From: an uncultured Alphaproteobacteria bacterium
Lineage (GTDB): Bacteria; Pseudomonadota; Alphaproteobacteria; ATCC43930; CGMCC-115725
Direction: 5' to 3'
NCBI GenBank assembly: GCA_963701815.1
Contig: CAVPBN010000003.1
Span: 152,081 to 216,080, forward strand
DNA: 64,000 nt
The notes beneath the pieces were generated by a model. It was not told the DNA's origin. It did not search any database and saw nothing but the letters and a program-made list of their open reading frames with translations. Of the stretch, positions 10,236 through 18,106 are shown one piece after another. The first letter of the stretch is position 1; each line of letters opens with the position of its first letter. Position numbers and translations under genes: made by a program.

Positions 10236-10551
10236 GGCCCTCCTCCCGTTGACGCCCTGGGCGGCTTGCTGCCCGCCCAGCCGCCGGTGCCGAGGGTCGA
10301 GCCGCAAACAGCAGATCGGGGCTTGCGAGGCAGCCTCGAAGCCGCGCCCCGGTCTCGATCTCGCAAGATCGAGAATATGGAAGCTCCACGCAGCTTTGGG
10401 GGGCAACGGCCGAAACATGCCGGCCGCCGCGCCGGGCCTCGCAGTTCCTACCGCTGATCCCAATTTGGACACACCGAAGTCGCCGATTGAAATTGACACA
10501 CTGCTGTTTCGGGCCAAGGTTAAGCGGGATTTAATCTATGGGAGATCACGA

Positions 10552-11206
10552 ATGCGAGGGATCATCGCCACCGCTTTGGCTGCGGGAACGCTCTACTTTG
10601 CCCCGGCTTCCGCCGGCCACGCACAAAATCTGATCCGGAACGGCAGTTTTGAGAACCCCGCACTCCCCGCCGGCAGCGCTGCCACCTTCTGCGCTCCAGC
10701 GTGCAAGGGGCAGAAGGATCTTCCGGGCTGGAGCGTGGTCGGCGTGACCGGGGCAAACATTGATGTTATAACCAAAGTCAACTTTCACGGTTTGCATTTT
10801 GACCCGGCGGTCGGCAAGCAATACGCCGATCTGAGTTCTTCGGGAACTCTATCCGGAATCGAACAAGCGGTGGATACGAAGCCCGGGACCAAGTACCTGC
10901 TAAAGTTTTTGGTTGGAGCCATTTACGATAACAACAAACGTCAATTCATTTGGTCCGGTGAGCAAGGTAGATGTATACGTCAACCGAAAATTGTTCTTGT
11001 CGTCGATAAATTTGGCGACGCCTGCCGATACCACGCAGGTATGGAGGCAATGTGTTGCGGTATTCAATGCCGCTTCCGCCAAAACATTTATCGCCTTCTT
11101 TGCCGGCCCCCCGCCGACAATCGGTCCCGACGGATTTGACAGCATCGATGGGGTCACCTTGGAGCCGGCGCCCGCCGGCACCGAACCTGCTCCATCTTGT
11201 ATGTAG
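10552..11206 (+). pseudogene. Secreted DUF642 / choice-of-anchor-C-like protein, apparently frameshifted near 10905-10930
   Basis: RBS GGGAGA, then MRGIIATALAAGTLYFAPASAGHAQ (signal peptide), then NLIRNGSFENP...LPGWSVVG..ANIDVI...YADLSSSG.LSGIEQAVDTKPGTKYLLKFLVGA. The second half reads in another frame (ORF 10913-11206): TITTNVNSFGPVSKVDVYVN...WRQCVAVFNAASAKTFIAFFAG..IGPDGFDSIDGVTLEP. The region is AT-richer than its surroundings. Confidence 0.6.
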
Positions 11207-13839: not shown

Positions 13840-13868
13840 TTGACTTCTGAGAACAAATCAGGTACGAT
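13840..13868 (+). promoter_or_regulatory. Sigma70-like promoter candidate for the toxin-like gene
   Basis: TTGACT - 17 nt - TACGAT, ending 27 nt upstream of the ATG at 13895. Confidence 0.35.
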
Positions 13869-13894
13869 GGCCCATCGGGCAAATCGGACAGACG

Positions 13895-14863
13895 ATGCCG
13901 CCGACCGGCGTTCACCTTTGGCGTTTGAGTGAGGCGGGCGACAAGAGCCTCGGTGTATCGTGCACGCCGGAAGGGTTGTTTCTCGGCCGGACCGCTCTGA
14001 TCGAGCGCCACGGGAGAGGTTATGAGGTCCGCGCATCGGCCGAGATCGAACGGCTTCTCGGCCCCGCCTACGGCTATCCCGGCATCGCGCTCGACCGGGT
14101 GATGCCGGGCCTTGGCAGGGTCGCCTCGGCATTGGGCGAGGGGAACTTGTGCCTGGCCCAGATCGCAGCCCTGCGGCTGCGGCTCCCGGATCTGCCCGAC
14201 GGGATCTCGCGAGACGCCCTGGAGGCGGAGGACGCCCTGATCAAAGCGGCGCCGGGCGGTCCCGGGCTCGCCCGCGCCGGGTGGGACCCGGCCGAGCACC
14301 CGCGCGCCGGGGTTCCGCCCAATCCCGGCTGGTTCGCGCCGACGGGCGGCTCGGGAGCCGGTCACCCGCCGGAAATCGCCCAGAACGAGGAGGAGCGCGC
14401 GCCGGAGGAGCTGGCCGATCCCGCGGCCCCGATGCGGCAGGAGCTGTGGGACGCACGCATCGCCATCTTGCGCCAGCTCGATCCAGGCAATCCGAACCTG
14501 AGCTATTTGTCTGATCCCGGCTCGACACCGAGCCAAGCCGCGCTCGACCGCTTGAATGAGGCGCTCAGAGCCGCCGCCGTTGAGCGCGTGGCCAATTTTG
14601 TCATGCCTGGAGGTAAGCCAATCGGCCAGCAAGGAGGCAATGTTGACGTTAGGATGCTCGAAGGCGGGTTTGGGGGAGCAAGAAGCGCGTTCAATTACCT
14701 CCGCGTTGGCGGAACCCTTTATGACGGCGATTATCCCGGAACTATGGTAACGCTTCCCGGAGGTGCTGGATTTGTTGGGTTACGGACCAACGCACAGAAT
14801 GTGCCCACAATCGACATCAACGTTCCCGCGGGGATTGGTGTGCTGCGCCTCCATTACCAGTGA
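13895..14863 (+). CDS. Putative polymorphic-toxin-like protein: unknown N-terminal region, Pro-rich linker and a ~70-aa variable C-terminal module
   Basis: 322-aa ORF with no signal peptide or TM segment. The central motif is WDPAEHPRAGVPPNPGWFAPTGG. The C-terminal ~70 aa (..MLEGGFGGARSAFNYLRVGGTLYDGDYPGTMVTLPGGAGFVGLRTNAQNVPTIDINVPAGIGVLRLHYQ) is repeated in diverged form at 15196-15423. Its stop overlaps the start of the next gene (GTGA). Confidence 0.6.
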   Translation: MPPTGVHLWRLSEAGDKSLGVSCTPEGLFLGRTALIERHGRGYEVRASAEIERLLGPAYGYPGIALDRVMPGLGRVASALGEGNLCLAQIAALRLRLPDLPDGISRDALEAEDALIKAAPGGPGLARAGWDPAEHPRAGVPPNPGWFAPTGGSGAGHPPEIAQNEEERAPEELADPAAPMRQELWDARIAILRQLDPGNPNLSYLSDPGSTPSQAALDRLNEALRAAAVERVANFVMPGGKPIGQQGGNVDVRMLEGGFGGARSAFNYLRVGGTLYDGDYPGTMVTLPGGAGFVGLRTNAQNVPTIDINVPAGIGVLRLHYQ

Positions 14864-15195
14864 GAGTTCGAATGGAAAGGATTGCGAAGATTGCCGAGGG
14901 CTGCACGCGTGAAGCGAGACACGATTATGTGGGCTTGTGGCAAATTGCCACCCGGGTTAGGCAGGAGTTTGGCGCGTTGACCGATGTGGGGGTAAAGCGC
15001 CTCTCCCTCGACGTAGTACGTCGGATCGTTGAACGAGGGCTGGTCCCCGGAGATTACCTGAAAAGCGGGTTCAGGATTTGGCATGAGGGCGGCAGTGATG
15101 CGATCGTCAACCGCATCTCCAGCGAATGGGACGCGGCGCGCGGAGATCCGACGTTAGCCAATCCAATTTGCTGGTTCGGCGTCAAGACGAGGTGA
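14860..15195 (+). CDS. Putative cognate immunity protein 1 (small cytoplasmic protein, paralogue of 15423-15746)
   Basis: The start is GTG at 14860 (overlapping the toxin TGA) or ATG at 14872. The sequence is MERIAKIAEG..HDYVGLWQIA...KRLSLDVVRRIVERGLVPGDY...RISSEWDAARGDPTLANPICWFGVKTR. It aligns along its full length with the second small ORF. Confidence 0.6.
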   Translation: MRVRMERIAKIAEGCTREARHDYVGLWQIATRVRQEFGALTDVGVKRLSLDVVRRIVERGLVPGDYLKSGFRIWHEGGSDAIVNRISSEWDAARGDPTLANPICWFGVKTR

Positions 15196-15423
15196 AATCG
15201 ACCTCTTCGTGAATGCCTCGAAGAGCCCAAGTCGATTGCAGCAACGAGCTACGAGTTCGGTGGAATCTCTGTTCGGGCGGATCAGAGCCTGACCATTGTC
15301 AAGCTCCCCGGCAATGTGGGCTTCATAACGTTTCGCCCCATGTCTGGAGGCGGCTCGCCCGCTGTCGATATCAACCTGCCAGGCTTTTTTTTCATGAAAA
15401 TACATTTCGTTGGAAGCCCATAA
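15196..15423 (+). other. Orphan toxin C-terminal module with no start codon, beginning directly after the immunity-1 stop in the same frame
   Basis: Open frame NRPLRECLEEPKSIAATSYEFGGISVRADQSLTIVKLPGNVGFITFRPMSGGGSPAVDINLPGFFFMKIHFVGSP*. It aligns with the last ~70 aa of the 322-aa protein (GG-16aa-LPG..GF...R....P..DIN.P.....[RK].H[YF]). It is not in the ORF track because it has no Met start. Its TAA overlaps the ATG of the next gene (TAATG). Confidence 0.6.
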
Positions 15424-15746
15424 TGCCAAATATGAGTCAGATCATCGATGGATATATGCAGGAATTGGGAGTCGATTACATTGCCCTCCCTCAACTTGCA
15501 ACTGCTGCAAGACGTTGGCTCGGGGCCCGAACCACGGCGGAAGCGCGAAAGTTGAGCCTGGATATCGTCTGCCGTCTGTACGAGAGGGGGCTCAGGCCGG
15601 GCGATTATTGGGGTGGGGACTTCACCTATTGGCCGGACATAGGCTGCCGGGCGGTGCTCGACCGCATCGAGCGGGAATGGATCGCGGCCGGCGCCGATCC
15701 CAACCTGGCCGAGCCGATTTGCTGGTTCGCGCCCCGCTCGAAGTAG
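15423..15746 (+). CDS. Putative immunity protein 2 (paralogue of 14860-15195)
   Basis: 107 aa, MPNMSQIIDGYMQELGVDYIALPQLA...RKLSLDIVCRLYERGLRPGDY...RIEREWIAAGADPNLAEPICWFAPRSK. The architecture and C-terminal P.(L/N).A.PICWF motif match immunity 1. Confidence 0.6.
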   Translation: MPNMSQIIDGYMQELGVDYIALPQLATAARRWLGARTTAEARKLSLDIVCRLYERGLRPGDYWGGDFTYWPDIGCRAVLDRIEREWIAAGADPNLAEPICWFAPRSK

Positions 15747-15751
15747 GACAT

Positions 15752-18106
<2,355 letters not shown>

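Follow-up and report, generated by a model that had tools for sequence, protein, structure and literature searches.

A probable polymorphic toxin-immunity cassette with a displaced orphan module in a family sampled from soil Alphaproteobacteria

What kind of system is encoded where one larger gene is followed by two small paralogous genes, with a start-less copy of the end of the larger gene lying between them? This arrangement occurs within positions 13840-15746 of a 64,000-nucleotide stretch of contig CAVPBN010000003.1 from an uncultured alphaproteobacterium (the whole stretch is referred to here as the window). A 322-residue protein is encoded at 13895-14863 and two 107-residue proteins at 14872-15195 and 15423-15746, all on the forward strand, as is the start-less frame at 15196-15423. 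An earlier note, made from the DNA sequence alone, had proposed that these genes form a polymorphic-toxin cassette, that is, a full-length toxin gene with its immunity gene, followed by a displaced orphan module. We consider it very probable that the locus is such a polymorphic toxin-immunity cassette, and that it belongs to a family confined, as sampled, to soil Alphaproteobacteria. The proposal draws its support from the range of proteins that carry the C-terminal domain of the 322-residue protein, the linkage of this domain to the small-protein family across unrelated carriers, the exchange of C-termini behind a conserved N-terminal domain and the recurrence of orphan modules in related loci.

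The last 87 residues of the larger protein (14600-14860; hereafter the tip) constitute a mobile domain. A profile search with the tip at full sensitivity recovered 734 cluster representatives, and among the best 148 of these the tip ended no more than 12 residues from the C-terminus in 144. The carriers include Rhs proteins of 842-3092 amino acids, an SpvB/TcdB/Rhs protein, a phage portal protein and a MuF protein (PF04233), together with proteins that were recognized by sequence motifs as having HINT-, DUF4157-like or PrsW-like N-termini. The presence of one domain at the extreme C-terminus of such unrelated carriers is the signature of a polymorphic-toxin warhead. In an AlphaFold2 model of the 322-residue protein, which was built on 55 homologues and has a mean predicted local distance difference test (pLDDT) score of 84, residues 252-321 form a compact unit of a strand, a helix and four strands (pLDDT ~95). 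The best-conserved polar residues across the wide tip family are R253, R297, S300 and D307. Given the alpha+beta fold, the conserved Arg/Arg/Asp set and a cytoplasmic immunity protein, our guess is that the substrate of the tip is a nucleic acid. The RNase toxins of the BECR fold (barnase/EndoU/colicin E5-D/RelE) are also alpha+beta proteins, in which a helix packs on a four- to five-stranded sheet and the catalytic residues are basic or His; for comparison, the tip has the strand-helix-four-strand model, the conserved Arg/Arg/Asp set and a weak match to the CdiA-CT structure 5T86_A (probability 0.35, TM-score 0.44). The CdiA-CT and glyoxalase-like matches that Foldseek returned for the toxin model were set aside as too weak.

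The opposite end of the protein is conserved where the tip is exchanged. Residues ~1-122 (13895-14260) form a constant domain (hereafter the N-domain), the folded part of which (residues ~10-120) is modelled as four strands followed by four helices with a pLDDT of ~93. The segment from residue 124 to residue 170 is predicted to be disordered and contains the junction motif WDPAEHPRAGVPPNPGWFAP (14282-14341), which has the near-invariant family form WDPxxHPRxGxPPNPGWFAP. This linker is followed by a helical pre-toxin module (residues 176-235; 14420-14599), which was delineated from the model, where the helical segment spans residues 178-236, and from the comparison of carriers: the module accompanies the tip in N-domain, portal and other carriers and is absent from the Rhs and MuF carriers. 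When one genome from each species was scanned with the alignment of the N-terminus, 77 loci were identified, nearly all in soil Alphaproteobacteria (Stellaceae, Xanthobacteraceae, Bradyrhizobium and Roseiarcus); the only one outside the Alphaproteobacteria is on a 2-kb contig binned as Verrucomicrobiia. The N-domain is always N-terminal in its proteins, and some genomes have three or four N-domain loci, with paralogues in the same genome differing in their C-termini.

Across the 77 loci the N-domain and the HPRxGxPPNPGWF motif are kept, and the sequences diverge directly beyond the motif. The largest C-terminal class is PF21111, CDI_toxin_EC869_like (E=7e-15), which is followed by a 145-amino-acid family, while another class is a DddA-like deaminase (PF14428, E=6.5e-18) followed by Imm1 (PF14430). 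Further C-termini have no family assignment, and one of these types precedes a DUF4279 protein. The earlier note had asked whether a single type of N-terminus carries unrelated C-termini, each with a different small gene behind it, and this is the case across the 77 loci. Among the 120 closest homologues, most have the same tip type as the window protein and a minority differ past the sequence RVADK. Two of the latter (P0098 and P0102) have an end of an H-G-H-A-W/Y-x-x-H type, which has its own 72-residue open reading frame (ORF) overlapping the stop codon (L002), and P0120 has yet another type.

If the tip is a toxin, the gene directly downstream would be expected to encode its immunity protein, and the distribution of the small-protein family fits this role. 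Homologues of the small proteins lie directly 3' of the tip in the N-domain loci and also behind unrelated carriers. The Rhs protein P0279 is followed by a 109-residue homologue whose gene overlaps the Rhs stop codon (34-37% identity, E~1e-17), and the portal fusion P0160 is followed by two homologues in tandem (E~1e-31). The two small proteins of the window, imm1 and imm2, align over their full length without gaps at 44% identity (E=2e-32), in agreement with their description in the earlier note as full-length paralogues, and imm2 retains every family-invariant residue, among which are W70, W86 and W101. That note also had each small gene overlapping the stop codon of the preceding tip. The overlap is present for imm2, in the sequence TAATG at 15421-15425; imm1, on the other hand, most likely begins at the ATG at 14872, 8 nt past the toxin stop codon, instead of at the overlapping GTG at 14860, since its homologues begin with MExxxKIAE. 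No signal peptide was found in the small protein. Its model (pLDDT 93.5) has a winged-helix-like alpha+beta fold, and the best Foldseek match was 2O5H, with a probability of 0.95 and a TM-score of 0.53-0.62 but an E-value of 0.13 and an identity of 5-9%. The Imm-NMB0513 (DUF596) immunity family (Zhang et al. 2012, PMC3482391), for which 2O5H serves as the reference structure, is known to confer immunity to Ntox7 and Ntox20 toxins. As modelled, the small protein would share a winged-helix-like alpha+beta fold and conserved tryptophans with that family, but the resemblance is one of fold only, as no member of the small-protein family matched the Pfam model and the PDB profile search was empty. 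Judging from gene order and family distribution, imm1 is probably the cognate immunity protein of the 322-residue toxin.

The start-less frame between the two small genes is a remnant of a second tip. The last ~53 residues of the toxin and the frame at 15196-15423 share 34% identity (BLASTP E=5e-8), and when all six frames of the window were searched with a family hidden Markov model (HMM) built without the orphan, this frame was recovered at E=5.8e-19 and no further copy of the tip was detected. The recurrence of the toxin C-terminus that had been noticed by eye is therefore significant. The orphan comprises 75 codons plus a stop codon, opens directly past the TGA of imm1 in the same frame and has no usable start, with no ORF of at least 40 amino acids listed in that frame, just as had been described. 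The N-terminal ~25 residues of the toxin domain are missing from it, as are all parts of the protein that precede this domain. The orphan is closer to the tips of other family members (P0112, 69% identity over 51 residues, E=4.7e-18) than to the adjacent tip (34%), and it is therefore a remnant of a different allele and not a local duplicate. At least eight related loci (L003, L005, L006, L008, L010, L012, L036 and L056) also carry extra tips behind the primary pair, and these tips are full or cut at differing points and are followed in most cases by a further immunity gene; orphan arrays of the sort that the earlier note had suggested looking for in related genomes do exist.

A closely related metagenome contig (L080, in which the orphan corresponds to positions 789-1012) offers a glimpse of what may be happening to the orphan. 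The window and this contig, which is otherwise 99.7% identical, have four differences, two of which fall within the 228-nt orphan (a 1-nt frameshifting deletion and a substitution); of the others, one is synonymous in the live tip and one changes Gly to Glu in imm2. These differences fit decay of the orphan, although they are too few for a test. In addition, the base composition of the locus changes near the start of the tip. From about 14550 to 15600 the guanine-plus-cytosine (GC) content is 0.51-0.58, down from 0.69-0.76. At third codon positions, the GC content of the N-terminal part of the toxin gene is 0.82; the tip and the orphan have 0.55 and 0.57, and imm1 and imm2 have 0.68 and 0.70, compared with ~0.86 in neighbouring genes. 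These values bear out the earlier impression that the DNA is richer in AT from about 14550 onward.

Single ORFs that read from the tip into the immunity protein were encountered in five family members (P0025, P0071, P0103, P0114 and P0173). We rejected the idea that these toxin-immunity fusions are meaningful, as they arise from a change of frame in the last strand of the tip (His320 is read as Ile), and they probably result from homopolymer sequencing errors. The window orphan has a run of eight T residues (15385-15392) at the equivalent place.

Taken together, the data suggest how the locus may work and how it may have arisen. The 322-residue protein would consist of the constant N-domain, presumed to be a trafficking module, followed by the linker with its motif, the pre-toxin module and the exchangeable 87-residue toxin domain. 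The imm1 protein would neutralize the toxin, most likely by direct binding, and a cytoplasmic immunity protein implies that the target of the toxin is cytoplasmic as well. The region at 15196-15746 may then be left over from an earlier toxin end. Recombination through the conserved 5' part of the gene would have brought in a new tip-plus-immunity cassette and displaced the old 3' end, which would have lost its start and the first part of the toxin domain while its immunity gene stayed intact. By analogy with the model for contact-dependent growth inhibition (CDI) and Rhs systems, the retained imm2 may protect the cell from relatives that carry the old allele.

Several findings weigh against this explanation. 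Neither in the window nor at the 77 loci is a secretion, phage or adaptor gene linked to the toxin, which has no signal peptide. No significant structural match was obtained for either the N-domain or the tip: in Foldseek searches with the full-length model against PDB and BFVD, no match had E<0.1 (the best were 0.17 for PDB and 0.25 for BFVD). Position 300 is Ser in 89% of 140 representative tips but is Ala in the window toxin (14792-14794), and this allele might be weakened; the close relative P0004 retains the Ser, and by eye the orphan has a Ser in the corresponding loop (RPMSGGGS). Finally, close homologues share one C-terminus type, which diverges just slightly more than the N-terminus does (mean identity 0.54 versus 0.59). 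The earlier note had held that homologues with an invariant C-terminus and no linked small gene, or a lack of significant similarity between the orphan and the tip, would speak against a polymorphic toxin. Neither was found, but exchange is seen mainly in the wider family, as most close homologues have the same tip. The carriers of the tip, its linkage to immunity genes, the C-terminal exchange and the recurring orphans lead us to favour the polymorphic toxin-immunity cassette nonetheless.

The N-domain with its junction motif, the 87-residue toxin domain and the immunity family all have no counterpart at the sequence level in Pfam, NCBIfam and PDB. Searches with the four locus peptides against Pfam, NCBIfam, PADLOC and PHROGs gave no match below E=0.27; searching each member of the tip, immunity and N-domain alignments against Pfam gave only scattered chance matches to single members, and profile searches of PDB returned nothing for the tip alignment or for the immunity alignment. 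The earlier observation that the tip and the small proteins match no named family is consistent with these results. The same note had described the N-terminal ~240 residues as devoid of recognizable features other than a Pro-rich motif, and indeed no library match was obtained, but this part of the protein contains a conserved, folded domain of ~120 residues and a near-invariant motif. A literature search found no description of the N-domain, the junction motif or the tip, and the APD1 and APD2 domains of Zhang et al. are unrelated prodomains of Amoebophilus lipoproteins.

How, then, might the toxin leave the cell? The genes around the locus in the window have housekeeping functions (a luciferase-like oxidoreductase, a glutathione S-transferase, NadA, a molybdenum hydroxylase large subunit and an S9 peptidase). 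Clustering of the ORFs within 6 kb of the 77 loci recovered only the toxin family, the immunity families and some shared synteny of the cox cluster. The nearest upstream and downstream genes of these loci encode 138 proteins with 124 Pfam families, none of which occurs in more than five proteins, and the 25 flanking Pfam families that occur most often include none for secretion or phage structure. No cdiB-like, type VI secretion system (T6SS), vgrG, hcp, PAAR or adaptor gene was linked to the toxin among its window neighbours or in the flanks of the 77 loci, so the absence of nearby secretion genes that had been remarked on for the window extends to the whole set. The 322-residue protein has no signal peptide, and Pfam and NCBIfam searches identified no known trafficking domain in it; in a homologue search with the N-domain profile the domain was never fused to a known secretion domain, all matches being short N-terminal proteins. 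Carbon-monoxide-dehydrogenase-like genes (encoding a molybdenum hydroxylase large subunit, 2Fe-2S and flavin adenine dinucleotide (FAD) subunits, a MoxR-type AAA protein, a VWA protein and an XdhC-like protein) adjoin the N-domain toxin in the window (15752-18106, minus strand) and at several other loci, among them L046, L050, L063 and L066. A functional link to this cox-cluster neighbourhood was considered and rejected in favour of shared ancestry, as it is found at only 6-8 of the 77 loci.

Our best guess is that the toxin would be exported by a contact-dependent injection machine encoded elsewhere in the genome. The likeliest single candidate would be a type VI system, for which the N-domain would serve as a marker in the manner of MIX, FIX, RIX and PIX, although we regard type VI-like injection as a tentative assignment. 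Other export routes taken together, including bacteriocin-like action following release by lysis, are possible to a comparable degree, whereas loading into capsids of phages or gene transfer agents (GTAs) appears unlikely, as does a toxin-antitoxin or defence role without export. These estimates leave a small share unassigned, and the delivery route may be a new one.

Loading into capsids nevertheless deserves consideration, as it would retain the cassette as described above and change only the route of the toxin: the NPxxHPR...G..W motif would be a capsid-targeting or processing signal. The observation that raises this possibility is the portal fusion P0160, which is encoded at L082:279-3348 (GCA_030040955.1, JASHSH010000224.1). 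A portal protein (PF04860) located right after the C-terminus of a terminase is joined there through YSPDEPRVPAGNPTGGQW and an acidic linker to the pre-toxin helices and the tip, and two tandem immunity paralogues of 118 and 110 residues follow, so that the fusion gene lies between a terminase gene and immunity genes. Relatives of the motif (YNPDQPRVPAGNxDGGQWT and variants) join other N-termini, including this portal, to the same pre-toxin-plus-tip cassette, and the general form ~[FYW][ND]Pxx[HQ]PR...G..GG[QW][WF] occurs past differing short N-termini in P0148, P0151, P0154, P0162, P0199, P0218, P0268, P0287 and P0292, the last of which also counts in favour of capsid loading. A literature search found no description of the [FYW][ND]Pxx[HQ]PR...G..GG[QW][WF] motif. 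The tip, moreover, ends MuF head-morphogenesis proteins, and the N-domain family is restricted to Alphaproteobacteria apart from the one Verrucomicrobiia-binned contig. Gene transfer agents are common in Alphaproteobacteria.

Set against these observations, tblastn searches with the toxin found no match among 50,697 phage records and 72,556 plasmids, the scan of IMG/VR with the N-domain alignment found none, and neither did a tblastn search of phages with the short motif. The most frequent flanking families listed for the 77 loci include no phage structural family, and there was no structural match to viral proteins. The junction motif may mark nothing other than a recombination junction, as VENN and DPxGL do, or may act as a signal for processing or targeting. 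We therefore think it improbable that the N-domain and motif mark a toxin route into phage-like or GTA capsids for genes scattered in the chromosome outside prophages. Were capsid delivery to be correct, soil Alphaproteobacteria would bring toxins to their neighbours with a particle.

In a MuF context, the contig L084 (1372-3693; GCA_964532685.1) encodes a MuF protein that ends in the tip, followed by an unrelated 53-residue ORF and a degraded second fragment consisting of a MuF end plus a tip. This arrangement suggests that orphan modules, together with an alternative immunity family, also occur behind MuF proteins.

A second alternative is that the locus is an intracellular toxin-antitoxin or abortive-infection module, in which the N-domain senses a trigger, the small protein is an antitoxin and nothing is exported. 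The lack of a signal peptide, the housekeeping neighbours and the lack of linked secretion genes would all agree with such a module, and toxin domains are shared among polymorphic toxins, toxin-antitoxin systems and defence systems (PMC3482391). The search results point the other way, as the PADLOC and PHROGs searches were empty at the threshold given above and Pfam and NCBIfam returned no toxin-antitoxin or defence family. The tip is also the terminal domain of Rhs, Tc-type and MuF proteins, and these are delivered toxins; the N-domain carries the DddA-like and CDI EC869-like interbacterial toxin domains, with Imm1 among the associated proteins. The gene for the presumed neutralizing protein is downstream of the toxin gene, and the combination of displaced orphan tips and retained immunity genes characterizes competition loci driven by exchange. 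We judge an intracellular module to be improbable, at best on a par with capsid loading.

A third alternative, in which a two-gene unit was simply duplicated in tandem and has partly decayed, or in which the arrangement was created by the assembly, in either case with no role in toxicity or immunity, is largely refuted and highly improbable: the small genes are indeed paralogues 551 nt apart, and many related genes from metagenome-assembled genomes have frameshift-like truncations, but the orphan is nearer to other members' tips than to its neighbour, the carrier range and the C-terminal exchange speak otherwise, and the same arrangement in two independent datasets, a JGI metagenome contig (3300055389; 99.7% over 1387 nt) and a Logan contig (ERR11563127; 100% over 945 nt), excludes an artefact of assembly.

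Some further features of the window may be mentioned. Upstream of the toxin gene, a weak promoter-like site, identified by consensus match only, has the form TTGACT-17-TACGAT (13840-13868). An exact-sequence look-up of the window toxin and its CoxL-like neighbour retrieved no record. A separate island of low GC content (0.49-0.58) at 10249-11206 contains a gene whose product has a hydrophobic segment near its N-terminus and matches DUF642/HpiC1-like proteins weakly (E=4.6e-5, below the Pfam cut-off); this gene appears to be divided by a frameshift into ORFs at 10249-11139 and 10913-11206.

The polymorphic toxin-immunity cassette proposed here is of interest for several reasons. Polymorphic toxins are classed by their trafficking domain because this domain tells which machine fires the toxin. 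With 77 genome loci and several hundred metagenomic proteins, the family is present in abundant uncultured soil Alphaproteobacteria, and its warheads include known types (a DddA-like deaminase and an EC869-like nuclease) beside unassigned ones. Once known, its export route would fill a gap in our understanding of competition among soil bacteria and could reveal either that an established machine has a further use or that an entirely new route exists. The 87-residue tip and the 107-residue immunity protein make a compact and widespread pair that is suited to biochemistry, and the window locus, with two immunity alleles and one dead tip, is a ready-made test of specificity.

As our comparison with known systems shows, the cassette shares features with several of them. 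Of the features by which polymorphic toxins are recognized (Zhang et al. 2012), C-terminal exchange, a mobile toxin domain, an immunity gene matched to the toxin type and orphan cassettes were all found, while for a recognizable export route there was no leader, secretion domain or linked apparatus gene. The Rhs, CdiA and MafB loci likewise combine a constant N-terminal part with an exchangeable C-terminal toxin, a conserved junction motif and an immunity gene directly downstream, and they have displaced start-less toxin ends with intact immunity genes and C-terminal modules of atypical GC content; Rhs proteins even share the tip, with the same immunity family behind it. The window protein differs from the proteins of these loci in its length of only 322 residues and in having no RHS/YD repeats, two-partner secretion (TPS) or filamentous haemagglutinin (FHA) features, VENN, DPxGL, DUF1020 or signal peptide. 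A CDI system in particular would have a TPS domain, FHA repeats and a VENN or equivalent motif, whereas the protein has no Pfam match at all, and a cdiB-like neighbour, which the locus lacks.

The MuF and phage-head polymorphic toxins (Zhang et al. 2012, PMC3482391; Jamet et al. 2017, PMC5576092) resemble the cassette in that the tip ends MuF proteins and, through the same motif and pre-toxin module, a portal protein. Unlike them, the window gene encodes no MuF or portal domain and lies outside a prophage, and the N-domain is absent from the phage collections; all that the gene has in common with the portal fusion P0160 is the motif, the pre-toxin module and the tip. Orphan type VI effectors with MIX, FIX, RIX or PIX domains are similar in general design: a short leaderless protein with a family-specific N-domain, a linker and a polymorphic C-terminus is encoded ahead of an immunity gene, at a distance from secretion clusters, and several paralogues are found per genome. 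The N-domain differs from these marker domains in matching no MIX, FIX, RIX or PIX family in Pfam, and the 77 loci differ in having no T6SS gene. The overall architecture is what a specialist would expect of a polymorphic toxin system, and its novelty lies in modules that are not yet listed; most would be gained from learning how such a leaderless family, unlinked to secretion genes, is delivered.

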